IMG/VR virus record: IMGVR_UViG_3300022693_000736 | Location: 1-35,978 of that record | Reading direction: 5' to 3' (one strand) | From: a virus | DNA: 35,978 nt | Part shown: piece after piece, positions 1-28,615 of the stretch | How positions within the stretch are numbered: the first letter of the stretch is position 1 | Layout of the letters: every line of letters starts with the position of its first letter | Made by a program: the position numbers and the translations under genes | The notes under the pieces: generated by a model | Databases searched by the model: none | What the model was told of the DNA's origin: nothing | Seen by the model: the letters and a program-made list of their open reading frames with translations, nothing else

Positions 1-144
1 TATAAATTTAATGGATAGATGGACAGCAAGCGTTAAACAATTACATGCCGTTGTTGCACAAACTGAAATGGCAAATTTACTTACTAAAGGAAAGTTTGAT
101 AAAAGATTGCAGCAATTAGGGATTAGCGAATCCATTGGTAAAGA
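1..144. repeat. Terminal direct repeat, copy 1 (identical to 35835..35978). Most likely an assembly overlap of a circular or circularly permuted genome.
   Basis: Base-by-base comparison: 'tataaatttaatggatagatgg...tccattggtaaaga' occurs at both ends of the window. Confidence 0.95.
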
Positions 145-841
145 TATCGCCAAACAATTAAGAAAGTTTGGTAAAAAAACTGATGATGTTTGGATTGCTA
201 ACACTCGGGAGTGGGACGATCAAGCGCTTGCTGAAATTTGGGGTGGTGCATTAAGAAAAGAATCTGATCGCGTGATTGTTATGCCTGGGCAAGAAAAACC
301 TTTATTTATGTCTACTGAATTAGGGAAAACAATTTTTCAATTTAGAAGTTTTATGTTTGCAGCAACTCAAAGAATGTTGATTGCAGGAATTCAAGGGCAG
401 GACGCGCATTTTATGCAAGGTTTGCTTGGTATAACCTCACTTGGTATGATGGCTTATGCATTTAAACAATGGGATGCTGGAAGAGAATTAAGTGATGATC
501 CCGCTGTTTGGGTTACCGAAGGAATAGATAGAAGCGGTGTAACTGGTATAATTATGGAAATGAATAATACTGTTGAAAAGGTTAGCTCTAATAATTTTGG
601 TTTGCGTCCGTTGTTAGGCATATCAACACCTTCTTCAAGGTTCGCTTCTAGAAGTCAAGCAGAAGCTTTTCTTGGGCCCACATTTGGCTCTATGCTTACA
701 ACAGTATTAAAGGTTTCCGGCGGTGCCGCTGATGGTGATTTAGCCGATAATGATATTAGAGCTATCAGGCGTTTATTGCCTTATCAAAATTTAATGATTT
801 TTAGACAGCTGATAGATAAGGCTGAAAAGGAAATACAATAA
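1..841 (+). CDS. C-terminal part of a large internal virion / DNA-ejection (core) protein. It continues the ORF that opens at 33766. Codon phase starts at position 2 and the stop is at 839..841.
   Basis: The track ORF 11..841 is in frame with open frame 33766..35978 once 35835 is equated with position 1, giving about 969 aa in total. It is the last and largest of three ORFs after the tail tubular genes, as in T7-like morphogenesis modules. Hydrophobic segments are present. Confidence 0.75.
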   Translation, partial: INLMDRWTASVKQLHAVVAQTEMANLLTKGKFDKRLQQLGISESIGKDIAKQLRKFGKKTDDVWIANTREWDDQALAEIWGGALRKESDRVIVMPGQEKPLFMSTELGKTIFQFRSFMFAATQRMLIAGIQGQDAHFMQGLLGITSLGMMAYAFKQWDAGRELSDDPAVWVTEGIDRSGVTGIIMEMNNTVEKVSSNNFGLRPLLGISTPSSRFASRSQAEAFLGPTFGSMLTTVLKVSGGAADGDLADNDIRAIRRLLPYQNLMIFRQLIDKAEKEIQ

Positions 842-844
842 AGG

Positions 845-1387
845 CTATGTTCCATGATTAATATGATAACCATACTCTCTACTTTTTTGCTCCCTTGCCA
901 CACTCGCTTCTTTAGCTGTGTCAAAGTACCCTATAAATTTAGTTTTGCTATTTACACCTATTTCAGCTTTATATTTCTTTTTAACTTTGTCAAAATGAAC
1001 ACCTATAAAACCGGTTTTATTTCTTTTACTAAGCTTGAAGTTTTTATTGTTTTCTGTTCTTGTTACATCTCTAAGGTTTTTAATTCTATTATCAATCCCG
1101 TCACCATTAATATGATCAATATCATTAACGGGTTCTTTACCTTTAACAATAAGCCATATAATCCTATGCGCCATATATCTTTTGCTATTGATGCTTATAA
1201 TTCTGTAACTCTTTCCACTTTTCGTCTTAGTATTACAACCAGCTATTTTATTAGCGTACTTTCCATTCCAAATAGCCATACCTTTTTTAGATTTAAAATG
1301 ACTCTCAGGCCTAAAGTTCCAAATAAGAATTCCAGTGTCAGGGTTATAAGAAAGAATTTTTTTGATATACTGTTGAGTAAGTCCCAT
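845..1387 (-). CDS. HNH homing endonuclease with a C-terminal AP2-like DNA-binding domain (180 aa). It is antisense to the surrounding structural genes.
   Basis: Motifs 'DIDHINGDGIDNRIKNLRDVTRTENNKN' (HNH) and 'NKTGFIGVHF...KYKAEI' (AP2-like). The track ORF extends to 1420. Alignment to the paralog at 19357..19899 (also 180 aa) favours Met12 at 1387 as the start. Confidence 0.85.
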   Translation of the reverse strand: MGLTQQYIKKILSYNPDTGILIWNFRPESHFKSKKGMAIWNGKYANKIAGCNTKTKSGKSYRIISINSKRYMAHRIIWLIVKGKEPVNDIDHINGDGIDNRIKNLRDVTRTENNKNFKLSKRNKTGFIGVHFDKVKKKYKAEIGVNSKTKFIGYFDTAKEASVAREQKSREYGYHINHGT

Positions 1388-1446
1388 AGTGACAAGCCTT
1401 TCATGTTGGTAGAAAGTCATTATACACCAATAAATAGGATTTTAAA

Positions 1447-3279
1447 ATGACTATTACAGTTGAGCCATCACGCAACGAATACACAGCCGCGGCAGGGCAA
1501 AATATTTTTAATTTTACGTTTAAGATATTTTCGATAACTGATCTTAATGTTTACGTTACACCTGTAAATCAAGAGGAAAACGATTCTACTGATTTAACAA
1601 CTGATTATACTGTTGCTGGTGTTGGTCTTGAAGATGGTGGTTCAATCACATTAATAGCATCAACAAACGCAGGTGATTTAGTAACAATCGTTTCAAATAT
1701 ACCGTCAAACCGTACTACTGATTATCAAAATAATGGTGATTTTAGGCCTGATGTTGTTAATGATGATTTTGATCGCGTTGTAAGTATAGCTAAAAAAATA
1801 GAAGATAATTCTAATCGTTCAGTATTACTTAATCAAAGCAAGCAAGGTAACAAGCCTTTAGTTCTCGAAAGTCCTATACCAAGATCATCATTAAGATGGA
1901 GTCAAGACGGGCGTACTTTAGAAAATTTTAATTTAGTTGGTTTTTCGAGTCTTATAGTTTTCTCAACACCTTTTAGTTTTATAGCTACAGAAGGGCAAAC
2001 GGTTTTTGTTCTTCCCGCTGCTTTTGGTACAGAACCAAGCGTTGATTCAGTTAATGTTAATGGTGAATTCCAAGATGGCGTTGGTAACTTATCGATTGGA
2101 AGATCGTATAATGTTGCTGGTAATACAATAACTTTTACCGAAGAATTAAGAGAGGATGATTTAGTAACCGGATTAGCAAATCAAATTAAATCAACTAAAT
2201 CAGCAAATCCTAGTGAAAGCCCGTTAGGAACAAGAGGCAACCCAATTCCTTTTAATTCACAGCGCGAATTACTTAATACTGACTTATCAAGTACCACTTT
2301 TGTTGATGATGAATTTATTGAAACGTTTGGACGAGGTAAAATAAACGATGGTGGTGGTGCAATTTATCAAATAAAAGGATTTCAAACACCAGATTTTGAA
2401 ACAATTTTACCCTTAAATAATAATTTTACAGCAGTTCTGATTAACGGACCTAGACTAATATTACATAATGTTGAAATCGAAAGAATTGCACATAGGGGTT
2501 TTCGTGGTTTTAATGTTCAAGGGACTGTTTACGCTTTTGAGTATGCCTTAGACTATGGTGCAAATTCTTTGGAAGGTGATATTCAATTTACATCAGATAA
2601 TGAAATGGTTATATTTCACGATAAAGGCAATATGAACGTCCTTATGAATGGTATATCTGGAACAGTAAAAACCAACACTTTAGCCGCTGTTCAGGCAGCA
2701 ACGTTTAAAGAACTAACGGGTAATATTTTAGTAAATAAGGTTTTTATTCCTGAGTTCTTTGAATTATTAAACATATGCAGAAGCAAAGGTTGTCTTCTTC
2801 ATATTGAAATAAAAGATTACGTTACGCAAACAACCAATATTGATCAGATAGTTCAATTGATTGTTGATTATGGTTTAGAGCAAAGCGTAAGATTACAATC
2901 ATTTAGAATTAGTGATATTGAATATGTTCGTTCTATTAACTCAGATATCAAAGTCGGCTTTATAATATCAGGCGGTTACACCGGCAATGACATAGAAGGA
3001 ACGCCAAAGGCAGAAGGTTTTGAATTTATCAAGCGTGATAAAAACGCAATGTTAATACCTGACATTGGCACTGTAGATAACCCTCCGGTATTTCCAGATC
3101 CCACGGTTGCAGAATTTCAGGCAGCTGGTGTAGAAGTGGTTGTTTATATAACAGATAGTAGCAATGACAGTGCCCAAGGATTTGAATTTGCAAGGCGAAA
3201 TAATGTTAATGGTATTATGTCTGACTTACCATACTTTTACAATCAACCAGTAAGGATCAAGCATGGCACGTTTATCTAG
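1447..3279 (+). CDS. Tail fibre / tailspike with a C-terminal glycerophosphodiester phosphodiesterase (GDPD) domain.
   Basis: The N-terminus 'EYTAAAGQNIFNFTFKIF..DLNVYV' resembles the podovirus fibre adaptor region. The C-terminal part carries 'IAHRG...LEGDIQFTSDNEMVIFHDK...LHIEIKD', which are GDPD motifs. SD 'agga' lies 8 nt upstream. The gene follows the core-protein genes. Confidence 0.8.
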   Translation: MTITVEPSRNEYTAAAGQNIFNFTFKIFSITDLNVYVTPVNQEENDSTDLTTDYTVAGVGLEDGGSITLIASTNAGDLVTIVSNIPSNRTTDYQNNGDFRPDVVNDDFDRVVSIAKKIEDNSNRSVLLNQSKQGNKPLVLESPIPRSSLRWSQDGRTLENFNLVGFSSLIVFSTPFSFIATEGQTVFVLPAAFGTEPSVDSVNVNGEFQDGVGNLSIGRSYNVAGNTITFTEELREDDLVTGLANQIKSTKSANPSESPLGTRGNPIPFNSQRELLNTDLSSTTFVDDEFIETFGRGKINDGGGAIYQIKGFQTPDFETILPLNNNFTAVLINGPRLILHNVEIERIAHRGFRGFNVQGTVYAFEYALDYGANSLEGDIQFTSDNEMVIFHDKGNMNVLMNGISGTVKTNTLAAVQAATFKELTGNILVNKVFIPEFFELLNICRSKGCLLHIEIKDYVTQTTNIDQIVQLIVDYGLEQSVRLQSFRISDIEYVRSINSDIKVGFIISGGYTGNDIEGTPKAEGFEFIKRDKNAMLIPDIGTVDNPPVFPDPTVAEFQAAGVEVVVYITDSSNDSAQGFEFARRNNVNGIMSDLPYFYNQPVRIKHGTFI

Positions 3280-4057
3280 GTTTTTAAACGATTCAACATG
3301 GGTGTTGACACAAACCGGCGGTGCTGTTGTTACACCTTCAGATAGTGGTAAAACTATGAATCTTGCGGCTATAACTAATGATGCTGCTTTTATAATTAAT
3401 TCAGTTGTTGCATGGCCTGGTGATTCATTTGAATTTTCTGTTTTAGCAAGAAATATAGAAACGGGTAAAACTGGTTTTGGTGAAGTTATCATTGATTCGC
3501 CACCAGGGGTAAGACGGCAAGAAATAAGAATAGAATCAAAATCATTGAAACCTTATACGTTACGATATGATGTGCCAGTAGGTGCAGAAGGTCTTCGAGT
3601 AATTGATTTTGTATTGGGTGTTGATACACCTACCGATGGTAGTGCTGAATACACTTTGCCGCTTTTATTTAAAACTAAAGGCGATAATATATTTTTATCT
3701 GCCACTTATAAAATCGCATCAGCTGGTGGAATAACGCTACTTAGCACAGTAAAGCCTTTTAATACTAATGCAGCTGACTTGGTTGGTTCATGGGATGGTA
3801 CAAATATATGGTTTTTAATAACTCCCACTGAAACATCAGCATCTTTATTTGCTAACGGTATTAAACCCATACTGCAATTTTCAGCTAGTGCCGGCAATTC
3901 AAATTCAAAACCTATAACCTGGAATATAGAAGGGCTAACCGATAGCGGGGCTTTTCATATTCAAGCTTTAGATGAGTTAGGTGCTAGAATAGACTTAAAC
4001 GCTAATGATGCTTTAAGGCCTGATTTATTTGTAACAGTTACATTGGAGCTTAGATGA
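3263..4057 (+). CDS. Hypothetical tail-associated protein, possibly a second receptor-binding or accessory fibre protein.
   Basis: 264-aa ORF whose start overlaps the last 17 nt of the fibre gene. Beta-rich composition. Called from position only. Confidence 0.55.
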   Translation: MARLSRFLNDSTWVLTQTGGAVVTPSDSGKTMNLAAITNDAAFIINSVVAWPGDSFEFSVLARNIETGKTGFGEVIIDSPPGVRRQEIRIESKSLKPYTLRYDVPVGAEGLRVIDFVLGVDTPTDGSAEYTLPLLFKTKGDNIFLSATYKIASAGGITLLSTVKPFNTNAADLVGSWDGTNIWFLITPTETSASLFANGIKPILQFSASAGNSNSKPITWNIEGLTDSGAFHIQALDELGARIDLNANDALRPDLFVTVTLELR

Positions 4058-4058
4058 T

Positions 4059-4526
4059 ATGGCATTAACAAAAGATAGGTTTGTCTTAAGAAAAGACTTA
4101 ACGACATTAGCCGCAAGCCGAGTGATAAGCGGTGCTAGAGTCGAACTAGATTCAGGTGAGCGTTTTTTGACAGGGGCTGTTGATGGTGGTAACGGTATAG
4201 AATTGGTGGATGGTAACTTTGCTAATCCAATAATAGAAACTGTAGATTTATCGTTTTTACCTATAACTGTTGCAACAGCTTTGTCCGTCGATAGCAGAAG
4301 CATAAGCACGGTAACAAATACCCATACAATGGCTGATGGTGTTGATGTTGGAGATACAATCGATTTTACTTGGAAGGATGGAACAATTGCGACAATACAA
4401 GCTGTTTCAAACATTTCTTTTACAGATAAAGACGATGTAACAACTGTCGATACTGAATGGGTTTTTGATTTTCCTATCGTTGAGTTGACCTTTGTTTGGA
4501 CTGGTTCACAATGGGAGATTAAATAG
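4059..4526 (+). CDS. Hypothetical protein in the tail-fibre locus.
   Basis: 155-aa ORF, tightly packed and co-oriented. No motif recognised. Confidence 0.55.
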   Translation: MALTKDRFVLRKDLTTLAASRVISGARVELDSGERFLTGAVDGGNGIELVDGNFANPIIETVDLSFLPITVATALSVDSRSISTVTNTHTMADGVDVGDTIDFTWKDGTIATIQAVSNISFTDKDDVTTVDTEWVFDFPIVELTFVWTGSQWEIK

Positions 4527-4940
4527 ATGAGTACTTTATGGAGTGCGCAGTTTGCCAGTGATGCAGGTGGTGGAATTCTTGTACTTAGGTTTGGTAGTAC
4601 AGCTTTACAAGTTAACGCAGGAGCTACAGGTAATTTTATAAACATAATAGTTGCAGCAGACCGTATAGGACGACTAAACCTTCTCAGTTCCGCTGGCACT
4701 GAGACACTAATAGAAGTTAAAGTTGATGGAGTGGTAGTACAAGCGGGTTCATTAAGTCAGACGCCCGGACCTGCTATTAGTTTTGCTATAGCTAATGGAC
4801 AAAGTATTGCTCTTAATTCTGCGCCGGGTATAAAGCCACCTGTTATAGGTGAAAAAGGGCAGAATATCACAGTATCAAAAGTAAGTGGTAGCACTGCAAA
4901 TACAATGTTATATAATTATGATTTATTGGAGGCTAAATAA
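4527..4940 (+). CDS. Hypothetical protein in the tail-fibre locus.
   Basis: 137-aa ORF that starts directly after the previous stop codon. Confidence 0.55.
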   Translation: MSTLWSAQFASDAGGGILVLRFGSTALQVNAGATGNFINIIVAADRIGRLNLLSSAGTETLIEVKVDGVVVQAGSLSQTPGPAISFAIANGQSIALNSAPGIKPPVIGEKGQNITVSKVSGSTANTMLYNYDLLEAK

Positions 4941-5326
4941 TGAAAACATTATATAAGAAAATATGGTACCCAGATGACTTAAAACCTGCAGAAGGTGAAC
5001 AGTATCTTGACGCTAAACAAGGTAAAGTAGTAGAAGGTGAGGTAATAGACCCTTCAGGGCACATTGCTATTTATCACATACCTCAGTTATTAGAATCTCA
5101 AGAAGCACGTATTGATCTTATTGAAGTGGAAGCAGCTGAAAGAATTACTGCTACTGACTGGAAACTACAGAGAGTAGAGGAGCGTAATCGTAGAGGTAAA
5201 AAATCTCAGGCTGATGTAGACGCTATACTAGATATGCGTGACCAAATACGTATTGATAGTGATACAGCAGAAGCAGCAGTAATGGCTTTAACTACTATAG
5301 AAGAAGTTAAAGCTTTTACATGGTAG
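4940..5326 (+). CDS. Hypothetical protein, possibly a tail-fibre assembly / chaperone-like protein.
   Basis: 128-aa ORF with an ATGA-type overlap with the upstream ORF. It is the last gene of the rightward late block. The chaperone idea rests only on position and size. Confidence 0.5.
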   Translation: MKTLYKKIWYPDDLKPAEGEQYLDAKQGKVVEGEVIDPSGHIAIYHIPQLLESQEARIDLIEVEAAERITATDWKLQRVEERNRRGKKSQADVDAILDMRDQIRIDSDTAEAAVMALTTIEEVKAFTW

Positions 5327-5332
5327 TAGATA

Positions 5333-6010
5333 CTAAATTTGTTTCATGAAAAATCCGTTAGAACTACTAGCGGTTTTTTGTATCAACTCAATATCAGAAA
5401 CAGCCGCATCAATAAACTCTTTCACCTGTTCGAATTCATTTTGATTTTTAAATGTCCAAGCAGCAATTTTAAATTTCTTAACACTATCATAGTTATCTTT
5501 AATAAGTCCAAAAGGTATTATTATCCAATCAGCGTCTACAGTAGTAATATGATGCTCTCTTGTGATAATTCGGCCAGTTTCAATGCTTGGGTTAATAGAT
5601 TTTATCAAATCAACGTCTGATTGTTTGAATGATGAAAAATTAACAGTAATATTAAATTGATTTAATAATTCTAACGCTGGTTTTATAACTTCAGTCTCTT
5701 TTGCTTCAATCCAAATTTTTACATTGTTATTACTGGCAAAATACAATAAATCTTCAAAGGTATCGTAAGTTTCACTATCTAAAGTTTTATCATGTGAAAG
5801 AACAACAACCCCGTTTTTCATTCTTAAATCAGTTTCAATACTATCAAAACCTAAATTAATGGCGTTATAAAAGCCTTTAATTGTATTATCCTTTGCATTA
5901 ATCCCCCGGTGTGAAACTATTTCCACAGCGATTTGATCAATCACGTCAATCTCATTTACTTTATTGCCACCACAACCAACCAATAATATTAAAACCATAA
6001 CTATTTTCAT
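5333..6010 (-). CDS. Secreted lipoprotein with a glycerophosphodiester phosphodiesterase (GDPD) domain.
   Basis: N-terminus 'MKIVMVLILLVGCGG' is a signal peptide with lipobox L-V-G-C. GDPD motifs 'VSHRGINAKDNT...DSIETDL...VVLSHDK...IWIEAKE' follow. TAATG overlap with the upstream ninG-like gene. Confidence 0.8.
   Translation of the reverse strand: MKIVMVLILLVGCGGNKVNEIDVIDQIAVEIVSHRGINAKDNTIKGFYNAINLGFDSIETDLRMKNGVVVLSHDKTLDSETYDTFEDLLYFASNNNVKIWIEAKETEVIKPALELLNQFNITVNFSSFKQSDVDLIKSINPSIETGRIITREHHITTVDADWIIIPFGLIKDNYDSVKKFKIAAWTFKNQNEFEQVKEFIDAAVSDIELIQKTASSSNGFFMKQI
5355..5379 (+). terminator. Rho-independent terminator for the rightward late operon, lying inside the 3' end of the convergent GDPD gene.
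   Basis: Stem ccgttag (5355..5361) / ctagcgg (5367..5373) with one G-U pair, a 5-nt loop, then TTTTTT (5374..5379). It sits 29 nt after the stop of ORF 4940..5326. Confidence 0.6.
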
Positions 6011-6639
6011 TATTTAATAATCCTTATCTCAAGGTTAAACTTAATTCTTAAATTTTCGATCTCTTCCCACGTTAATTTTTTTACCGCGTTATTGGTTTCG
6101 CAATAATCAATAATTTCTTGACCTTCTTTTTCACCAAAACGAGCAATCAAACCTTTTTTATATCCGTCTATATCACCGCTTTTTTGCTGGTTACAATTAT
6201 AGTTGTGTTGAAGGTATGAGTTTTTAAAGTCGTATCTTAAACCACTATTAGCGCCAACGGTTTTAAAATGCCCGTTACACCATTGATCATTACCTATTGT
6301 CTTTTGGCAACTAATACAAACTGGCTCAAGACCACGATCATCAAACCATTTTAATTCCTGAAGCCGCCTTAATTTATTAAATACAGGTTGTGTTTGTTTA
6401 TGCTGCCACTTTATAGTTTTACGGTTAAGCTCCTTAACGGCTGCTTTATTAACTTTTATTTCTTTGGCTCGTGCTTGCTTAACTTTGTTATTTTGTCGCT
6501 CAATTCTCTTTGAGGTTTGTTCTGATGCGAAATTTAAAGCGTGCTGCTGAGAACAGAACCATCCAATAGGATGTTTTATCCCTTTACTGGCTGATTTGTA
6601 TTCTAAACAGTATTTACATTTACGATTACTGTTCGACAT
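6010..6639 (-). CDS. ninG: NinG/Rap-family recombination endonuclease.
   Basis: N-terminal 'CKYC...WFCSQQHA', then central 'CISCQK...GHF...LRYDFKNSYLQHNYNCNQQKSG', matching the lambda NinG family pattern. SD 'aaggaaag' lies upstream. Confidence 0.8.
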   Translation of the reverse strand: MSNSNRKCKYCLEYKSASKGIKHPIGWFCSQQHALNFASEQTSKRIERQNNKVKQARAKEIKVNKAAVKELNRKTIKWQHKQTQPVFNKLRRLQELKWFDDRGLEPVCISCQKTIGNDQWCNGHFKTVGANSGLRYDFKNSYLQHNYNCNQQKSGDIDGYKKGLIARFGEKEGQEIIDYCETNNAVKKLTWEEIENLRIKFNLEIRIIK

Positions 6640-6662
6640 TATTCTTTCCTTGTTCGTTTGGT

Positions 6663-6833
6663 TTAAATTAATCCGACTGTAAAATCATGATCACAGTTAT
6701 CACAACAAGCATTTGCAATACCATAGTATTTAACTATTCCTGTTTCGAACTCAGCCCCGTTTATAAATAACTCTTGATTGCATTCAGGACAATAAACACT
6801 AATCTCTGGCATGTTAATTTCTAATATCTTCAT
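6663..6833 (-). CDS. Small zinc-ribbon protein.
   Basis: 'CPECNQ...CCDNCDH'. The track ORF runs to 6869, but the ATG at 6833 has GGAG 9 nt upstream inside a 28-bp leader that is duplicated at 7010..7037. Confidence 0.55.
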   Translation of the reverse strand: MKILEINMPEISVYCPECNQELFINGAEFETGIVKYYGIANACCDNCDHDFTVGLI

Positions 6834-6852
6834 CACTCTTATCTCCGTTTGT

Positions 6853-7014
6853 TTATTTATTAAACCCATCTATATTGATGCTTTCTATATCAATATTATC
6901 AAGTAAAAGCATAGTAATGCCATCAACAGTTATATTTATACGCGGACTTTTATTAACTGCAATTTCTGTTGTGTAAACTTTGTCGTCACCTTTGATTTTA
7001 TATTCTATTTTCAT
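6853..7014 (-). CDS. Small hypothetical protein of 53 aa, below the ORF-track size cutoff.
   Basis: Hand translation gives MKIEYKIKGDDKVYTTEIAVNKSPRINITVDGITMLLLDNIDIESINIDGFNK*. Its leader, SD and start context are identical to those of the next gene downstream. Confidence 0.5.
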   Translation of the reverse strand: MKIEYKIKGDDKVYTTEIAVNKSPRINITVDGITMLLLDNIDIESINIDGFNK

Positions 7015-7043
7015 CACTCTTATCTCCGTTTGTTTATATGTAG

Positions 7044-7388
7044 TTAACTACGCGATTTCTTTCTATCGCGCTTAGCTTTGTTTTTGTTTGTAGGTATTTT
7101 TATTTTAGGCATTTCCTGAAAGCTAATCTCTTCACATTGTTCATAATCAAGCATTTTTATAATTAAATCCGTATCTTTTTGCCCTCTTGATTTCATGCGC
7201 AAACTTTCGCTTTCACCTACGCATTCACCGTTGACAATAAAACCGCCTGATATCGCTCTCATACCACCAAAGGATGATTTTTTAACATCATCAGACATTA
7301 CTGAGTGCTGAATTATTTTAGGGAAAATTATTATCTGTTCACCATTGTGTCCGTCAAAAACTACATATTTCATTTCGCTTCTCATCAT
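7044..7388 (-). CDS. Hypothetical early protein.
   Basis: 114-aa ORF with a basic C-terminal tail. The start is ambiguous (MMRSEM...). Confidence 0.6.
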   Translation of the reverse strand: MMRSEMKYVVFDGHNGEQIIIFPKIIQHSVMSDDVKKSSFGGMRAISGGFIVNGECVGESESLRMKSRGQKDTDLIIKMLDYEQCEEISFQEMPKIKIPTNKNKAKRDRKKSRS

Positions 7389-7422
7389 TCTCTCGCTTGT
7401 TGATTTGTTATTGACATTATTG

Positions 7423-7617
7423 TCACTTAGATATTCTTAAAAAACCATACTTAACACCTTGTTTATGACATTGGATTTTAACAGCGTTCATACTTCTATT
7501 TGGAAACTCTTTAGTTAAATCTTCAATAGTCATAGTACCTGCAAGATTATTTAATTTAATTCTTTCAGCCTTAGACCAGTTATTTTGTTTGCTTTTTGAT
7601 AAATAATTAAAAGACAT
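7423..7617 (-). CDS. Small protein, possibly with a Myb/SANT-like helix-turn-helix.
   Basis: The pattern 'W SKAERIKLNNLAGTMTIEDLTKEFPNRSMNAVKIQC' resembles a Myb-like repeat. This is weak. Confidence 0.45.
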   Translation of the reverse strand: MSFNYLSKSKQNNWSKAERIKLNNLAGTMTIEDLTKEFPNRSMNAVKIQCHKQGVKYGFLRISK

Positions 7618-7619
7618 AA

Positions 7620-7835
7620 TTAAACCTTTTTCATTAACGCCTTGGTAAAAACCATATTAGCCATTCTTCTCGCTGTATTTTCTCGCTTATTTTCGTTAGG
7701 TTCTTTTAAACCTTTTTGAAATTCTTTAGAGGCTATGGTTACTAAAGTTATATATAAATCTTCACCGAGTTCACGCCGACACATTGCCTGAAACCTTCGA
7801 TCCGCTGTTGTTGCAATTTCGTTATAAGTAGTCAT
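7620..7835 (-). CDS. Hypothetical early protein.
   Basis: 71-aa ORF with a 4-nt overlap with the upstream gene. Confidence 0.5.
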   Translation of the reverse strand: MTTYNEIATTADRRFQAMCRRELGEDLYITLVTIASKEFQKGLKEPNENKRENTARRMANMVFTKALMKKV

Positions 7836-8275
7836 TCTTCATAGCCTATATTTAATCCGGACTGGTTCCAAAAATAAATAATATTTTCACGATATTGATT
7901 GTGTTGTTTTGTATTCATTAGGCTAGTTACTTGAATTATTTGAACAAATTTTATTTGTTGTTCTCGAGTCATTGTGAAAAATTTAGCACCTTGTAAAGCA
8001 TGACCAATTACAACACCAACTTCAGGATCGCTTAATATAATTGGCAAGCCAAAATCAACTTTACATTCAGCTTCACATGTTTTTATGTCGGTTGCCGTGA
8101 ATTCGCTTATTTGTTTATACCAAACATGTTGTTGTGCGTTGGCAGACAAAGAGCGCTTCTTTTTCTTTTTGGTAATATTGACAAAAAGTGGCTGGCTTGG
8201 ATTTTCAGATAAAAGTTTATTTACCTTTTCGTCAAACTCACGCTTAGTGGTTAATGAAAGAGAATAGTTTTTCAT
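7832..8275 (-). CDS. NinB/Orf-like recombination mediator (147 aa).
   Basis: 'PLFVNITKKKKKRSLSANAQQHVWYKQIS' parallels lambda Orf 'PIVVTIQERNRSLDQNRKLWACLGDVS', and the length matches. The start is taken at the internal ATG at 8275, which forms a TAATG overlap with the upstream ORF. The track ORF extends to 8317. Confidence 0.5.
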   Translation of the reverse strand: MKNYSLSLTTKREFDEKVNKLLSENPSQPLFVNITKKKKKRSLSANAQQHVWYKQISEFTATDIKTCEAECKVDFGLPIILSDPEVGVVIGHALQGAKFFTMTREQQIKFVQIIQVTSLMNTKQHNQYRENIIYFWNQSGLNIGYEE

Positions 8276-11107: not shown

Positions 11108-11144
11108 ACTCATTACCCTTTAATAAATGTTTTTTGATAACTAT

Positions 11145-12215: not shown

Positions 12216-13957
12216 TGAAAGCATATAAAATTTTAGATTTAATTCAAGGAACGGATAACTGGAAAGAAGCCAGATTAAATTTTCTTTGTGCTAGTGAAGC
12301 GCCAGCCGTAATGAATAAATCAAAGTTCATGAGCAGAAATCAACTTTTAGATTTAAAAAAAGGTTGGGTATCAAATCCTAATTCATCATTTAAAGAAATG
12401 CTTTTTGAAAAAGGCCATGAACACGAAGCTCAGGCTAGACCGATATTTGAATTTGAAGAATGTGAGGATTTCCCCCCAATAGTGGCATCATTTGAAGTTG
12501 TTATTGATGGTGAACACATTACATTACTTGCTTCTTTTGATGGTCTTGGTGAAGATTCCGGTAGAGTTTGGGAGCATAAAGAATGGAATTCAACTTTAGC
12601 TGAAAATATCAGAAACGGTGTTTTAGAAGCTTTGTATTATTGGCAATTGGAACATCAAATGTTAGTTGCTGGCGTTAAAGAAGCTATAATCACTTGCTCT
12701 GATGGTACTGAAACAAATCGAGTTTCAATGATTTATCAATCTATCCCTAAGCGCCGTAAAGATTTAATAGCTGGATGTAAACAATTTCTTATTGATCTTG
12801 ATAATCATGTTATCGAAGCCAAGCAAGAAGTTATCGTTGCCAAAAAAGCCGAATCATTCCCTTTAATAACTTTTGATGTTACTGGTACAGAAATAACTAC
12901 AAACATCAGCCAAGTATTAATTGAAATTTCAGATCGTGCAGAAGTTGAAATGAATCGAACGCTTGAAACTGATCAAGACTTTGCCGACAAAGATAAACTC
13001 AATAAAGCCACCAAACAAGCAAGGGCTGATTTAAAAGTATTAATTAACGATGTGCAAGGCCGTTTTGTTAGCTACTCTGAATTTGCCACTGTTGCCGCTG
13101 ATATTGATGAAGTTCTTCAGAAGATGCAAAGCCAAGGTGAAAAGCAAGTAAAAACGGCTAAAGATGCTAAGAAAAAATCAATTGAACAAGTTGCATTGAT
13201 TGAAGTTAATGATCACGCTATTTTGATATCTAAGGTTATAGCGCCTATTTTGGTTAGTTCTGTAATGGATTGTGGTGTTGATTTTGCTTCAGCAATGAAA
13301 AACAAACGAACAATTGAAAGTTTACAAAATGCGGTTGATGGTGTTGTTGCTGAATTTAAAGTTTACTCAAATGAAATTAAAGACAAAGTTGTCATTAATT
13401 TATCAACGCTTCGTGAACTTGCCGGTGAATATGAATTTTTGTTTATGGATTCGGGGGAATTGGTAAAGAAAGAAAATGAAGATCTTGTTGCTGTCATTAA
13501 AAATCGTATCAATGAACATAAAGAAGCTGAAGCTAAAAAACTTGCTGAGCAAAAAGAAAAAATCGAGCTTGAAGCTAAAGAAAAGGCTGAACGTGAAGCG
13601 GCGGCTAAACTTAAAATTGAAGCACAAGTAATACGTGATGAAGAACGTAAAAAGGTAGAAGCCGAACAAAAAGAAATTGCCGATAAATTAGCACAAGAGC
13701 AATTAAATAAAACAGTAGAAAAAAATGTTATGGCTGAACTTCCTGAAGTTGTTCAAGAAAAAAAGCCAGTTGAACAGCGTTTATCTGATCGCTTTGATGG
13801 TAGCCATAGTGTTCATAGCAAAAAGTCAGAACCATTAACAGATAAAGAAATTATATTTAATAAACTTAAAAAAGAATTAGATTTTTGGGCTAGTGAATAT
13901 CACATTGATGATTTTGCCATTCGTGATTTAAGAATGCTTATTAAAAAGTATTTGTAA
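12215..13957 (+). CDS. YqaJ/lambda-exonuclease-like recombination exonuclease fused to a long C-terminal extension ending in a Lys/Glu-rich coiled coil.
   Basis: N-terminus 'QGTDNWKEARLNFLCASEAPAVM...EKGHEHEAQARPIFE...WEHKEW' is the YqaJ pattern. Residues 200..420 resemble DUF1351-type phage proteins. 'KEAEAKKLAEQKEKIELEAKEKAEREAAAKLK' is a coiled coil. Confidence 0.75.
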   Translation: MKAYKILDLIQGTDNWKEARLNFLCASEAPAVMNKSKFMSRNQLLDLKKGWVSNPNSSFKEMLFEKGHEHEAQARPIFEFEECEDFPPIVASFEVVIDGEHITLLASFDGLGEDSGRVWEHKEWNSTLAENIRNGVLEALYYWQLEHQMLVAGVKEAIITCSDGTETNRVSMIYQSIPKRRKDLIAGCKQFLIDLDNHVIEAKQEVIVAKKAESFPLITFDVTGTEITTNISQVLIEISDRAEVEMNRTLETDQDFADKDKLNKATKQARADLKVLINDVQGRFVSYSEFATVAADIDEVLQKMQSQGEKQVKTAKDAKKKSIEQVALIEVNDHAILISKVIAPILVSSVMDCGVDFASAMKNKRTIESLQNAVDGVVAEFKVYSNEIKDKVVINLSTLRELAGEYEFLFMDSGELVKKENEDLVAVIKNRINEHKEAEAKKLAEQKEKIELEAKEKAEREAAAKLKIEAQVIRDEERKKVEAEQKEIADKLAQEQLNKTVEKNVMAELPEVVQEKKPVEQRLSDRFDGSHSVHSKKSEPLTDKEIIFNKLKKELDFWASEYHIDDFAIRDLRMLIKKYL

Positions 13958-15781: not shown

Positions 15782-16165
15782 ATGACTATTAAAACTGAAA
15801 ATTTCAATCCGAAAACAGATACTAAATTGTTATGTACATGCGGTCATACTGAATGTGATAAAAGAAGCGTTCAACAATTAATATTAAACAGGGTTCAATT
15901 AATCCGTGAAGAAGCTGCAAGGCCATTAACAATCACTTCAGGTGGTCGCTGTATTCATCATCCTGACGAATTGGCAAGAGTTACACCGGCAGACCATCAA
16001 AATTGTGTTGCTGTTGATATTGGTGTTTTAAATGGTTTTGAACGTGGTCAAATAGTCGAGCTAGGCTTGTTGTATGGATTTAATGCAATTGGTATTGCAA
16101 AAACATTTGTACACCTTGGCTGTAGACCAGAATTAAAAAATAATGTCGTTATGTGGGTTTATTGA
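15782..16165 (+). CDS. Endolysin, a zinc peptidase of the M15 family (M15A / Peptidase_M15_3-like).
   Basis: 'PLTITSGGRCIHHPD...ADHQNCVAVDI' contains the H-x6-D motif, and 'FVHLG' supplies the third His. It is a small single-domain enzyme. Confidence 0.75.
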   Translation: MTIKTENFNPKTDTKLLCTCGHTECDKRSVQQLILNRVQLIREEAARPLTITSGGRCIHHPDELARVTPADHQNCVAVDIGVLNGFERGQIVELGLLYGFNAIGIAKTFVHLGCRPELKNNVVMWVY

Positions 16166-16799: not shown

Positions 16800-17348
16800 A
16801 TGAACATTAAAAGTATACTTATGACAATTGGTACGGGTTTATTATCTTCAACACCATTAGGTTTAGCAGCTTTACCGGTGATCAATGCTTTATTACCTCA
16901 TGATAAAAAATTACCTGTCGATGCAAGCGTGAGTCAAGCACAAGACATCATCAAAAATCTTGAACCTGATCAAGCCTATAAAATTGAAATGGCTGAAATT
17001 GATTTACTTGTTGAAGAGGAAAGAGGTCGAACTGAACGGTACAAAGCAATGTGTGAAAGTGATGGACAAGAGACTAGGGCAAAACTAGTCAACAAAGCCA
17101 TGAATGCATTAATAACTTTGTCTTTAATGTTTGTTGGTGCAATTGCTTATGTTTATATCAAAGATGGTGCACAGGTAGCCTTTAGCTATGAATTATCAGC
17201 TGCATTTCTTACTATTACCGGTACTTTTGCCTATGTGGTACGTGCTTACATGGGAGATTTAAGAACTGAAACAACATCAAGACACCAAACGATTGATGAA
17301 AAGCCAAGACCTGAAAGTTTTTTAACTGCATTTTTTAGCAAAAAATAA
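16800..17348 (+). CDS. Holin-like membrane protein.
   Basis: 182 aa with a small-residue N-terminus, a charged helical middle, and two C-terminal TM helices ('ALITLSLMFVGAIAYVYI', 'AAFLTITGTFAYVV'). The layout resembles 3TM GTA-type holins, and the gene lies near the endolysin. Confidence 0.4.
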   Translation: MNIKSILMTIGTGLLSSTPLGLAALPVINALLPHDKKLPVDASVSQAQDIIKNLEPDQAYKIEMAEIDLLVEEERGRTERYKAMCESDGQETRAKLVNKAMNALITLSLMFVGAIAYVYIKDGAQVAFSYELSAAFLTITGTFAYVVRAYMGDLRTETTSRHQTIDEKPRPESFLTAFFSKK

Positions 17349-17461
17349 TGATATACTAAAGAGCAATCAACAAGATTGTTAACTTAAAAAAGGTATTATC
17401 ATGATTTGTTTTATCGGTGATGAAAGCAAACCGCCAATTGGCGATTAAGGAATAATTAACA

Positions 17462-17914
17462 ATGTTATTAATATTTTGTTCGCTAAGTTTTATGTTATTA
17501 GCTATAGACAAAGAAAATCGGTTTGAATGGCTTTGCTTGTCGATGCTATGCGCCTTATTAGCGCTCAATGTATTATTAACAGACGTTACAGGGGGTGCAC
17601 GATATTTTATTCGTTCATCCCTTATTTTTTCATTCGCGCTATTTCTTGCTAGTAGGTGGTGTTTACTGGCTGGTTATCAAGCGGTTATACTGCTAATGTT
17701 TTTAATTGCTAATGGGTGCTTGTTGTTTGATGTGGCAATAAACAGGCATTTTCTAATATATAATTATTTTGAGAGCGTTATTTATGGACTGGTCACTTGT
17801 CAATTTATGGGGGTTTTCATTGTTCCTTTATCAAAAATATGGATTAATTTTTGTGGTTATTGCGCAAGTTATTATTCTGGCTATAAAAATAAATATATGG
17901 ATGATAAAATATGA
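17462..17914 (+). CDS. Polytopic membrane protein of 4-5 TM helices.
   Basis: 150 aa, strongly hydrophobic throughout. SD 'aagga' lies upstream. Confidence 0.55.
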   Translation: MLLIFCSLSFMLLAIDKENRFEWLCLSMLCALLALNVLLTDVTGGARYFIRSSLIFSFALFLASRWCLLAGYQAVILLMFLIANGCLLFDVAINRHFLIYNYFESVIYGLVTCQFMGVFIVPLSKIWINFCGYCASYYSGYKNKYMDDKI

Positions 17915-18168
17915 GCAACGCAACAAATGCGGCCAATGCCACCATAGTTTTAAGCGGCGGTCAGATGATAATAGCGACAGTGAATGAATACGCTACTATC
18001 ATTAGTTTAACTATCGGCCTTATAGGCCTTTTGACAGGGTTATTTTTTCACATTATTGCAGTCATAGACAGGCGAAAAAAAACCAATGAAGATATCAATA
18101 AAATAAAGAGTGAAGCTGTCAAAGAGTACATTAACAATCAAACCAAACGAGGTGATCAAGATGTCTAA
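17911..18168 (+). CDS. Single-TM membrane protein, possibly a holin, antiholin or spanin component.
   Basis: 85 aa with TM 'IISLTIGLIGLLTGLFFHIIAVI' followed by a charged C-terminus. ATGA overlap with the upstream gene. Confidence 0.5.
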   Translation: MSNATNAANATIVLSGGQMIIATVNEYATIISLTIGLIGLLTGLFFHIIAVIDRRKKTNEDINKIKSEAVKEYINNQTKRGDQDV

Positions 18169-19356: not shown

Positions 19357-19899
19357 ATGAAATTAAGTCAAAGAATATTAAATCAATTAATACAATTCAA
19401 TCATGAAACCGGCATTTCTACTTGGAAACACAGAAGTATAATTCACTTTAAAAATAAACAATCTCAAAAAAGATGGAATGCCATGTTTTCGGGAAAAACC
19501 ATTGGCACGAAATGGAAAAACCCTAAAAGCGGAAAGAAATACATCTTATTAAGCTTGTTTGGTAAAAAATATAGACTTCATCGAGTTTTATGGTTTATGA
19601 CTTACGGGGAATGGCCTAAAGATATTGATCATATCAATGGCGACGGTACAGATAATAGAATTTTAAACCTTAGAAATGTAACTCACAAAGATAACACCAG
19701 AAATCAAAAGTTAAACAAGAATAACAAAACCGGTATTGCTGGCGTGTCTTGGTGCTGTAAATCAAATAAATGGAGAGTAACAATAAGCTCTATGGGCATG
19801 GGCTATTACCACTGTTTTTTAGATGCTGTATCATTAAGAAAAAGCTTAGAGTTAAAGTTAAATTACCATTCAAATCATGGTAGTGTGAGACCTTTATGA
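19357..19899 (+). CDS. HNH endonuclease with an AP2-like domain (180 aa), directly upstream of terS.
   Basis: 'DIDHINGDGTDNRILNLRNVTHKDNTRN' and 'NKTGIAGVSW...KWRVTI'. Paralog of 845..1387. 4-nt overlap with terS. Confidence 0.85.
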   Translation: MKLSQRILNQLIQFNHETGISTWKHRSIIHFKNKQSQKRWNAMFSGKTIGTKWKNPKSGKKYILLSLFGKKYRLHRVLWFMTYGEWPKDIDHINGDGTDNRILNLRNVTHKDNTRNQKLNKNNKTGIAGVSWCCKSNKWRVTISSMGMGYYHCFLDAVSLRKSLELKLNYHSNHGSVRPL

Positions 19900-26938: not shown

Positions 26939-28615
26939 ATGGCCTTCACGCAAAGTACATTTGCACCGGTGGGTGCGCACTCTTCAGACACACCAAACCT
27001 ATTCAGTTATAAAACTCAAGATAGGCTTTTTGCAGTAACACAGCCTAATTATTTTAATGACAAAAGATTTCAATTAAGAGAAGGCGATTTTATGCTTATT
27101 CAAGCCTTTGATGGTAGTGAATTTGCAGAAGTCGACTCAACAAGATCAGGAGTATTCGCCGTGACACAGCCAAGTTTAAAAACAGCTTTCGGAGAGGAAA
27201 AGGTAGAATCCAATTCTCCCGTCACTCAGATTTCAGCACAAAACGGACTATTACAAAATGTTTTAGCGACAACAGATGATTTAGCTTCTGGTACAAACAG
27301 CGTAGTAAATAAAAAATTCACTTGTCAAACTGGTACAGATGCAAATGGTTTAGCTACCATATTATCTCTTAGGCAAATATCTAGCAGAGCAGGTCAAGGA
27401 CTGCTTGCGGATTTTTCAGTAGTATTCGGTGCTGGTGTTGTTGATAGTACACAAGTGGCAGGGTTGATCACATCTGAGAATAACTTTTCATTTGCGCTTG
27501 TTGGTACTAGTTTTGGTATACTTTCTATCAGGGATGGTCTGGATGAACTACAAGAATTAACATTAACAGTTGCAGCATCAGGGGCAGAAACAGCAACAGT
27601 CACTATAGACGGAACACCTTTTAATGTGTCACTAACAGGGGCTGGAAGTTTATCTGATGACGCTTTTGAAATATCAGAAGATTTAAATGCTAATGTTGTT
27701 AATTATAACTTTTCATCAAATGGCGCAACTGTTATAGCTCAATCTGCTTTGTCTGGACCTCAAGGTACTTTTGATTACTCAAGTACAGGAGTATCAGAAG
27801 GTACCTTTTCTCAAATAGAAGAAGGAACCAGTGGAATACCTGCATTCATTCCTCAAGCTAGTTGGAATTTTGACACTAGATTAGAGGGTGATGTCAATAC
27901 TGTACTGGATCCGTTTTCATATAATAACTATCAAATACAACTTAATAGCGCAGTTGATTTTTTTATTGAAGATAGAGAAACAAAAAAACAAGTTCTTGTG
28001 CACAGAATACCATTTGTTAATTCTGGTACAGACAACAATCCAGCGAATTCAACTTTTAGAGTTGGCTGGGCGGCAAATAATAGTGGAAACACTTCAAACG
28101 TTACCATTCAAGGCGATAGAGCATCTATTTTTAATGAAGGTGTTATATATTATGACAATACCCCAAGAAGTGATTCTAATTCGCAAACAATCCCAGCAGG
28201 ATCATCAATACAAACATCAGTTTTAATACTTCGGAATAGAATTAGCTTCTCTAATGCATTAAATAGAGCGGAGGTTTTACCTTATGTCGTCTCAGCAAGC
28301 ACAGAAAGTAATAAATTCGCCTCGTTCAGATTGATATTGAATCCATCTTTTTCATCGCCAGTTAATTTTTCTTATATTGATAAAGTAAACTCGCTTGTTG
28401 AAGTATCTAAAGATGCGGTTGTAGTTACTGGTGGTAGAGAAATAGGTAGCGTAATAGTTGAGGCAGGAAACCCACAAACGATGAGTTTCAACGAAAATAC
28501 AATAACAACTACAACATCAATCTTTCCTGGTGACGTAATCGCAATAGTTGCAACGCTTCAGGCTGGTGGTGGTGCAGATTGCCAAGCAAGCATCACCTTT
28601 AGAGAGGATTTGTAA
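26939..28615 (+). CDS. Virion structural protein: the shared N-terminal module plus a beta-rich extension of about 490 aa, possibly a head or tail fibre or decoration protein.
   Basis: 558 aa. The first ~65 aa are paralogous to ORF 26611..26886. The remainder is Ser/Thr/Asn/Gly-rich. Confidence 0.6.
   Translation: MAFTQSTFAPVGAHSSDTPNLFSYKTQDRLFAVTQPNYFNDKRFQLREGDFMLIQAFDGSEFAEVDSTRSGVFAVTQPSLKTAFGEEKVESNSPVTQISAQNGLLQNVLATTDDLASGTNSVVNKKFTCQTGTDANGLATILSLRQISSRAGQGLLADFSVVFGAGVVDSTQVAGLITSENNFSFALVGTSFGILSIRDGLDELQELTLTVAASGAETATVTIDGTPFNVSLTGAGSLSDDAFEISEDLNANVVNYNFSSNGATVIAQSALSGPQGTFDYSSTGVSEGTFSQIEEGTSGIPAFIPQASWNFDTRLEGDVNTVLDPFSYNNYQIQLNSAVDFFIEDRETKKQVLVHRIPFVNSGTDNNPANSTFRVGWAANNSGNTSNVTIQGDRASIFNEGVIYYDNTPRSDSNSQTIPAGSSIQTSVLILRNRISFSNALNRAEVLPYVVSASTESNKFASFRLILNPSFSSPVNFSYIDKVNSLVEVSKDAVVVTGGREIGSVIVEAGNPQTMSFNENTITTTTSIFPGDVIAIVATLQAGGGADCQASITFREDL

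Follow-up and report, generated by a model that had tools for sequence, protein, structure and literature searches.

The DNA analysed here is a 35,978-nucleotide stretch of a virus (IMG/VR record IMGVR_UViG_3300022693_000736, positions 1 to 35,978), referred to at its full length as the window. It encodes two glycerophosphodiesterase (GDPD) domains on opposite strands, one in the C-terminal part of a tail fibre (1447..3279, + strand) and the other in a small lipoprotein (5333..6010, − strand). The fibre gene is the first gene of the host-recognition module at 1447..5326, which consists of the fibre followed by four small partner open reading frames (ORFs). The lipoprotein gene is the last gene of a leftward early operon that starts at a cro-like gene near nt 11113 and includes a replication gene and NinG.

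The fibre ORF encodes 610 aa and was recognized by its matches to PHROG tail families, to the N-terminus of Dpo31 in the PDB and to Pfam GDPD. A first-pass annotation of this DNA had described it as a podovirus fibre N-terminus joined to a C-terminal GDPD domain; this description and its coordinates were right, and the motifs IAHRG, LEGDIQF, VIFHDK and LHIEIKD were all found. The N-terminal adaptor of the T7/podovirus type (aa 1-130, 1447..1836, +) matches phrog_1640 (1.8e-23) and 13 further PHROG families, mostly annotated as tail, tail fibre or tail spike, and the same region matches the solved Cobetia phage tailspike Dpo31 (PDB 28lx, aa 1-132, 2.3e-15). Using tblastn, the fibre also matches many podovirus fibres. 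The GDPD catalytic domain (aa 349-594, 2491..3228, +) was delimited by Pfam, by alignment to the T. tengcongensis GDPD 2PZ0 and by its invariant columns. The match to PF03009 has an E value of 3.9e-18 and 66.9 bits (cut-off 23.6) and covers profile positions 1-241 of 244. The fibre scores below all of the NCBIfam equivalog cut-offs for GlpQ, UgpQ and LpgD (33.1 versus 264, 31.5 versus 450 and 18.4 versus 254 bits).

The second ORF encodes a minimal GDPD lipoprotein of 225 aa. The earlier description of it, as a GDPD domain behind a lipoprotein signal in the last gene of the opposite-strand early operon, was borne out on each point. PF03009 is again matched above its cut-off (4.6e-10, 40.5 bits), here over aa 34-81 and profile positions 1-51 only. 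Alignment to relatives and to 2PZ0 extends the domain to about aa 206, with the remainder aligning weakly to 2PZ0 and 1O1Z, and the same alignments place the GDPD core at aa 30-211 (5378..5923, −). The N-terminus, MKIVMVLILLVGC, consists of M-K, a hydrophobic stretch and the lipobox L-V-G-C13 (signal peptide 5972..6010, −), which was read directly from the sequence using the pattern [LVI][ASTVI][GAS]C. The lipobox is kept in all three close relatives (P0002-P0004), and in nearly all of the eight distant relatives (P0022-P0029) and the L020 protein. Under E. coli rules the Gly at +2 suggests sorting to the outer membrane; in one distant relative, P0025, the +2 residue is Asp. The start codon of the lipoprotein gene, an ATG, overlaps the stop codon of a NinG/Rap-like gene (6010..6639, −; Pfam NinG 6e-26) in the sequence TAATG, and AAGGA lies 11 nt upstream. 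This arrangement makes the lipoprotein gene the final, translationally coupled member of the leftward operon.

Of the GDPD insertion after the H-D motif, most is absent from the lipoprotein, leaving a gap of ∼40 aa in the alignment, and the mature domain of ∼185-200 aa is ∼50 aa shorter than typical GDPDs. Its scores fall far below the GlpQ/UgpQ/LpgD equivalog cut-offs (21.2 versus 264 and 18.1 versus 450 bits), and no match to PRK11143 (GlpQ) was obtained at E ≤0.01. There was no PHROG match of any kind, GDPD is its sole family, and neither the lipoprotein nor the fibre-cluster ORFs matched a PADLOC defence model. The lipoprotein falls in a lineage of its own, that of minimal GDPD lipoproteins of ∼200 aa that do not have the cap insertion.

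GDPDs bind metal through an E-x-D pair and a later Glu and use two His as catalytic acid and base (PMC4926365, PMC9886279), within the conserved motif HR..EN..ExD..HD (PMC4926365). Catalysis proceeds via a cyclic phosphate and uses the free 2-OH of glycerol (PMC10404611). In the fibre, H349, R350, E376, D378, H391, D392, E454 and K456 are invariant throughout a seven-member fibre family. Alignment to 2PZ0 equates H349/R350 with H17/R18, Q358-G359-T360 with E26-N27-T28, E376/D378 with E44/D46 and H391 with H59, while of the IEIK residues E454 was equated by motif with the later Glu that binds metal, and K456 with the Lys, in the enzymes of the literature. Because the catalytic and metal residues are all invariant and the Glu of the ‘EN’ motif is present in all six relatives, the fibre family would be expected to be catalytic. 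In the close lipoprotein family, H34, R35, D41-N42-T43, E59, D61, H73, D74, E102 and K104 are invariant. Its ‘EN’ reads DN; close relatives have Asp there, and distant ones have Glu, Asp or Ala. The remaining catalytic residues are kept.

The C-terminal half of the fibre, the adjacent ORF264 and the lipoprotein were each searched for as families among 5.8 billion proteins. Six relatives of the fibre half were found, giving the family of seven, together with nine relatives of ORF264. The fibre cassette is 45-58% identical to those at loci L001, L004, L005 and L006, and 64% identical over the 196 aa visible in the partial fibre of L007. These alignments begin at aa 176 for L001 and at aa 174 to 259 for the others, and the N-terminal ∼175 aa vary with the phage backbone. 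In the alignment the adaptor is common only to the podovirus fibre P0010 and is absent from the siphovirus and P22-like relatives. The exchangeable part, aa 176-610 (1972..3279, +), is common to at least five other phage backbones: L001 and L008 are siphoviral, with a tail terminator and a tape-measure protein; L004 is a P22-like podovirus (P22_Tail-4, Phage_stabilise); L005 is a second siphovirus, with Phage_tube_2 and NinB/NinG; L006 and L007 are partial contigs carrying the fibre/ORF264 cassette.

ORF264 (3263..4057, +), of unknown fold, lies 3′ of the fibre in 6 of 6 phages at 49-63% identity. It gave no match in Pfam, PHROG, NCBIfam, PADLOC or a PDB profile search. The two genes overlap by exactly 17 nt (3263..3279 in the window) in the same six phages (the window, L001 and L004-L007), and the junction sequence AAGGAT..CATGG..TCTAG is kept, with the Shine-Dalgarno sequence and ATG of ORF264 lying within the last fibre codons. 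These embedded signals imply tight translational coupling of the two genes and partly account for why the fibre C-terminus (V-R-I-K-H-G) is conserved. In every context examined ORF264 stands together with fibre aa 176-610, and it is an obligate partner of the GDPD fibre. The two together have the make-up of a classic exchangeable host-range module, one that is defined and swappable.

The close family of the lipoprotein has only four members; the three others are 44-59% identical to it and all have a lipobox. One of the three is encoded at L001, a siphovirus of which L008 is a second sighting in another metagenome. This phage repeats the fibre half, ORF264 and the lipoprotein at 45%, 57% and 56% identity, respectively, in a different arrangement: the lipoprotein gene lies between ORF264 and a homologue of ORF155 (the ORF that follows ORF264 in the window) on the strand of the tail genes. 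The other two close members, L002 and L003, are on contigs too short to judge for a fibre GDPD, and the contigs of L004 and L007 end too early to judge the presence of a lipoprotein. Thus two close-family contexts are long enough to judge, and in both the lipoprotein gene is ≤2.1 kb from a fibre GDPD. Since both families are rare and the same families occur in two unrelated virion types, the evidence for linkage is real. The linkage is facultative and comes from two phages.

We tentatively favour a reading, plausible enough to pursue and open to being wrong, in which an enzymatic receptor-binding fibre is accompanied by a mobile envelope GDPD acting on the infected cell to strip off the same glycerophosphate group. 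The virion GDPD would bind a surface glycan that contains glycerophosphate, on a Gram-negative host, and cleave a phosphodiester there, so that the fibre would be a receptor-modifying receptor-binding protein. Candidate targets would be phosphoglycerol on the lipopolysaccharide (LPS) core and a teichoic-acid-like capsule or O-antigen. For the lipoprotein we infer an envelope location and an exclusion function: co-transcribed with the early genes, it would be exported, anchored by its lipid in the envelope and would take off a glycerophosphate group of the same kind from envelope glycans of the infected cell itself, possibly while these are still in the periplasm and not yet exported. The stripped cell and its debris would be poor receptors, resulting in superinfection exclusion or in progeny being spared re-adsorption. 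Because an unrelated phage has the same gene set, the two GDPDs probably act on the same host surface sugar-phosphate. The lipoprotein gene would be a moron, a mobile accessory gene with a tendency to accompany the fibre cassette, and its product would not be an obligate second subunit. A stronger form, in which the two genes make up a portable two-enzyme receptor module (the virion GDPD for entry, the lipoprotein GDPD for exclusion or protection from debris) moving between podoviruses and siphoviruses of Gram-negative marine hosts, is possible and to our minds rather doubtful. Such a module, with a lipoprotein GDPD of separate evolutionary origin, would be the phage equivalent of the way influenza combines receptor binding with receptor destruction.

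The phage backbone indicates a Gram-negative and marine host, probably a gammaproteobacterium, on account of tube proteins of the T7 type, a family of internal virion proteins that has an endolysin domain, the NinG/NinB relatives and the P22-like siblings with the same cassette. The best host lead is Colwellia or related Alteromonadales. Colwellia hornerae was the sole organism name among the extended-family lipoprotein relatives that were looked up. The GC content of its locus is 37.6%, with related loci at 32-41% and the window at 35.8%. In Colwellia psychrerythraea 34H, phosphoglycerol is reported on the LPS core oligosaccharide and on lipid A (PMC8914368), and a glycerophosphate substituent with a free 2-OH is a chemically proper GDPD substrate according to the mechanism in PMC10404611. 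Glycerophosphate-decorated LPS is therefore a concrete candidate receptor, and it is the substrate we infer.

Several observations weigh against the exclusion reading. A lipoprotein that faces the periplasm may fail to reach surface polymers. The linkage is found in two independent phages only (the window and L001/L008), and in L001 the lipoprotein gene stands in the late tail operon, a poor fit for early exclusion. L005 and L006 carry the same fibre/ORF264 cassette with flanks that have no GDPD lipoprotein, and the cultured phages Escherichia phage DTL and Erwinia phage Snitter, which have a GDPD fibre and Gram-negative hosts, encode a single GDPD each. Of the proposal in the first-pass annotation that the two enzymes form a pair, the recurrence of the linkage in the window and in L001/L008 is supported; an obligate pairing is not. 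The envelope protein, which that annotation had called a paralogue, is not a close paralogue of the fibre GDPD. The two domains are clearly divergent, as it had also stated, with 23% identity (E 1e-6), and a profile of the lipoprotein scores the fibre at ∼37 bits, while more than 150 other GDPD clusters reach at least 55 bits (the 150th-best library match has 55.6). Origin of the pair by duplication was rejected, since these bit scores put each domain nearer to many cellular GDPDs than to the other.

Database scans and structure models add to these points. IMG/VR scans with the lipoprotein, with the close-family alignment and with the ORF264 alignment returned no relatives; a GTDB scan with ORF264 returned nothing, and one with the lipoprotein family only a distant Bacteroidales GDPD of 25% identity. 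A metagenome scan added only L008 and the distant cellular GDPDs L009 and L010. The AlphaFold2 model of the lipoprotein has a mean predicted local distance difference test (pLDDT) score of 65.3 and a predicted TM-score (pTM) of 0.59, and its top Foldseek matches are all GDPDs with TM-scores of ≤0.38. The model of the full fibre, from a 7-sequence alignment, has a pLDDT of 41.5, and neither model is usable as a structure.

A wider lipoprotein family (∼200 aa, 32-36% identity), obtained by a whole-library profile search, also counts against an obligate pair. Its members occur in phages without a visible tail GDPD, and no second GDPD was found in the visible parts of the extended-family phage contigs, including L017-L020. 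At L019 and L020 the lipoprotein gene lies just upstream of the small terminase subunit gene, and at L017 and L018 it lies in lambdoid early/nin regions. A further member is chromosomal and not in a prophage (L015, 10001..10618; Colwellia hornerae VOLR01000003.1, WP_146797896), with glycolysis genes on one side and GGDEF, parC and mraZ on the other; it suggests a cellular function for the minimal GDPD lipoprotein subfamily. At L014 the lipoprotein gene directly follows a small ORF, a 56-aa ORF with two transmembrane (TM) segments and a DUF5675 ORF, which we take to be possibly an endolysin. At L002 it is convergent with a gene for a Peptidase_M15_3 endolysin.

The last two loci raise the alternative that the lipoprotein is a helper of lysis or egress. 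It would act late on lipids or glycans of the outer membrane, in the usual place of an o-spanin and in the manner of a lysophospholipase D or phospholipase D, disrupting the outer membrane or freeing progeny, and its proximity to the fibre would be an incidental matter of module boundaries. The gene at L014 is in spanin position, and the L014 and L002 loci have a homologous small ORF in common. The window itself encodes an M15-like endolysin (15782..16165) as well as holin-like membrane ORFs (16800..18168), and a scan of all frames and start codons of the window, a crude one for spanins, gave no lipobox ORF besides the GDPD lipoprotein and thus no recognizable o-spanin or u-spanin. The GDPD fold includes lysophospholipase D and phospholipase D toxins (PMC10404611), phospholipase D is among the fold matches of the lipoprotein, and without the cap insertion the active site could be accessible to substrates in the membrane. 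However, the window gene is ∼10 kb from the endolysin gene and in the early operon, the L001 gene is inside the tail-fibre cluster, and the alternative leaves the adjacency to a fibre GDPD in two close-family contexts unexplained. We also know of no GDPD that disrupts outer membranes. On balance we consider a lysis role unlikely. That the window lipoprotein is itself a spanin was rejected on position and architecture: besides its distance from the endolysin gene it has an enzyme fold and lacks a C-terminal TM segment. Only at L014 and L002 does a lipoprotein gene of this kind adjoin an endolysin gene. The segments of L014 and L002 that share the small ORF are 89..1521 and 20..1325, respectively; the contigs are unrelated, the ORF contains ..YDGWHV.. 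and the lipoprotein genes are in opposite orientation.

The lipoprotein could also be an auxiliary metabolic gene product, a periplasmic GDPD like GlpQ or protein D that frees glycerol-3-phosphate as a source of phosphate and carbon in phosphate-poor seawater, with the fibre GDPD as an unrelated adsorption enzyme. Phosphate-starvation regulons include GlpQ and UgpQ, and genes for phosphate acquisition occur in marine phages. The lipoprotein is a GDPD family member predicted to be exported with its catalytic residues intact, it has a cellular relative among housekeeping genes in the Colwellia chromosome, and ordinary bacterial GDPD lipoproteins exist (L009). Against this, the scores are far under the GlpQ/UgpQ/LpgD cut-offs and the insertion that caps a small-molecule site is missing. 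Viral data sets contain very few members of the family, which sets it apart from typical auxiliary metabolic genes, and both informative close-family contexts adjoin a fibre GDPD. A metabolic role therefore seems to us quite improbable.

The third alternative concerns the fibre. The first-pass annotation had correctly read VQGT for the fibre and KDNT for the lipoprotein, and had proposed that the fibre binds its substrate without cleaving it. In its full form, Q358 would make the fibre GDPD a catalytically dead lectin and the lipoprotein alone would cleave. Q358 (codon CAA, 2518..2520, +) does stand at the conserved Glu of the HR..EN..ExD..HD motif, and E-to-Q changes often inactivate hydrolases yet keep binding. 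However, the argument had taken the Glu of P-E-N-T for a metal ligand, which is wrong: the ligands are the E-x-D pair and the later Glu, and these are intact in the fibre (E376, D378 and E454), as are the two catalytic His, the Arg and the Lys. The ‘EN’ position reads QG in the window fibre alone and EG in all six relatives, including the 74%-identical P0010; a single base separates CAA from GAA and accounts for the change. The equivalent position is E, D or A across the lipoprotein family. Q358 may reduce activity, or could be a variant of recent origin or an error of sequencing, and it is thin evidence for a lectin-like fibre; we regard a binding-only fibre as having little chance of being right. 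A reading of the lipoprotein gene as a lysogenic conversion gene was set aside, with neither an integrase nor a long repressor among the ORFs scanned, which were a subset of those in the window.

The exclusion reading can be compared with several known systems. Virion GDPDs are known from phages of Gram-positive hosts: one forms the central spike's petal domain in Staphylococcus phage 812/K (PDB 9euf and related entries; PMC13433997), and a baseplate glycerophosphodiesterase of Lactobacillus phage Ld17 is mentioned through a citation in PMC6116005. As in the window, a TIM-barrel GDPD is placed on a tail protein and is thought to bind or cleave a glycerophosphate polymer at adsorption. In sequence searches these chains are matched by both GDPDs of the window, at low identity and with only the N-terminal motifs aligning. 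In contrast to them, the carrier in the window is a T7-type podovirus fibre on a backbone pointing to a Gram-negative host, in which no wall teichoic acid is expected, and the domain is C-terminal in an exchangeable cassette with ORF264 as obligate partner.

Fibre GDPDs also occur in phages with Gram-negative hosts. The T1-like phages DTL (ORF58) and Snitter (QXG07653) have a C-terminal fibre GDPD with ∼28% identity over the domain, and an ORF of ∼265 aa follows each fibre gene. These fibres are annotated only as putative tail proteins; we found no characterization of them, and unlike the window the two phages have no second GDPD or lipoprotein. The ORF in DTL (L012, MG050172; 6737..7534, +), unannotated and directly 3′ of the GDPD tail-fibre gene, resembles ORF264 weakly at the profile level (hhalign E 7.7e-4, probability 25%), with a common ‘PGDxxEFxV’ motif. 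The same-sized ORF of Snitter showed no similarity to ORF264.

For the lipoprotein a parallel is found among superinfection-exclusion or lytic-conversion lipoproteins. The llp gene of T5 adjoins the gene of the receptor-binding protein pb5, and Cor lipoproteins have a similar role in making the receptor unusable (PMC9586334). Like them, the window lipoprotein is a small exported lipoprotein encoded beside receptor-recognition genes and made in lytic growth, with the proposed role of making the receptor of the infected cell unusable. The placement is also alike: the window gene is 6 nt from the end of the fibre cluster and the L001 copy is inside the cluster. Llp and Cor are non-enzymatic proteins of ∼60-80 aa that plug the protein receptor FhuA, whereas the window lipoprotein has an enzyme fold of ∼200 aa, shows no sequence similarity to them and would act catalytically on a glycan or lipid; exclusion by it is a proposal. 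Cellular GlpQ, UgpQ, LpgD and Haemophilus protein D have the same fold family and catalytic motif, and protein D is a lipoprotein. Both window proteins differ from GlpQ, UgpQ and LpgD in falling under the equivalog cut-offs, and the lipoprotein also in lacking the GDPD insertion. The proposed removal of a receptor determinant against superinfection and trapping of progeny resembles that by influenza neuraminidase and the HEF esterase, which are of another enzyme class, location and host, so that the likeness is one of analogy only.

In the literature, of which our coverage is incomplete, no pair of tail GDPD and lipoprotein GDPD, no enzymatic receptor-destroying phage exclusion protein and no phage precedent for the receptor-destroying logic were found, in agreement with the first-pass annotation, which knew of no such two-enzyme arrangement. 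Already known are the virion GDPDs of Gram-positive phages and receptor-adjacent lipoprotein exclusion genes; Gram-negative fibre GDPDs are known only as unstudied GenBank annotations. Known exclusion works by plugging a protein receptor (Llp, Cor) or by O-antigen glycosylation or acetylation. If the exclusion reading is true, the window would provide the first case known to us of phage exclusion or progeny protection by an exported lipoprotein that enzymatically removes a receptor determinant. Virion GDPDs would then extend from teichoic-acid-bearing Gram-positive hosts to Gram-negative marine hosts, and phosphoglycerol-decorated LPS or teichoic-like capsules would be indicated as phage receptors in cold-marine Alteromonadales. 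The cap-less GDPD lipoproteins of ∼200 aa are an uncharacterized enzyme subfamily with cellular members.

The slot that the lipoprotein gene occupies in the window has a counterpart in L005. Directly after NinG and convergent with the fibre-GDPD/ORF264 cluster, that siphovirus encodes a different lipoprotein (12848..13522, −; MKYLFLLLLIGC..., ∼224 aa from Met29), which has a sub-threshold match to Alginate_lyase2 (PL7-like, 27 bits versus the 29.7 cut-off). The slot after NinG may gather exported envelope-active lipoproteins beside receptor-binding genes.

The remaining ORFs of the fibre cluster are small. ORF155 (4059..4526, +) is kept in the cassette phages over its N-terminal ∼60 aa and variable in its C-terminus; aa 1-62 are 51-56% identical to L007 and L001, with weaker matches in L004 and L006. 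ORF137 (4527..4940, +) has no family matches in Pfam or PHROG, and ORFs of similar size occur in L004 and L007. ORF128 (4940..5326, +), the last gene of the late/tail operon, matches phrog_26358 (2e-4). Judging weakly from this match and from a Phage_tail_APC ORF at the analogous place in L007, it is possibly a fibre assembly chaperone. A terminator-like hairpin with a T-run (5355..5383, +) ends the late operon within the 3′ end of the lipoprotein gene. The 14-aa C-terminal tail of the lipoprotein, KTASSSNGFFMKQI (5333..5377, −), is encoded over this hairpin and is not present in any relative.

The window looks like the whole, circularly permuted genome of an uncultured marine podovirus, the permutation being indicated by an internal virion protein gene that runs off the 3′ end and picks up again at nt 11..841 (C-terminus, phrog_16310). 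Its structural part is of the T7/HTVC010P podovirus type, with genes for a portal, a T7-like scaffold, the major head protein and tail tubes A and B; for tail tube B the best relatives, at 28-34% identity, come from phages that infect Methylophilales, Vibrio and Pelagibacter. The early part is lambdoid, with genes for an O/DnaD-like replication protein, for Erf, for a RecE-like exonuclease and for Dam and NinG. Neither an integrase nor a tRNA was found among the subset of window ORFs scanned, and megablast of nt 1-8000 against GenBank phages gave nothing, that is, no relative at the DNA level. An ORF of 558 aa (26939..28615, +) between the major head protein and tail tube A matches no informative family; only its first 58 aa gave a match, to phrog_18004, a family of unknown function. 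Two genes resemble HNH homing endonucleases: one (845..1420, −) is squeezed in on the opposite strand, between the genes for the internal virion protein and the tail fibre, and the second (19357..19899, +) lies just upstream of the small terminase subunit gene.

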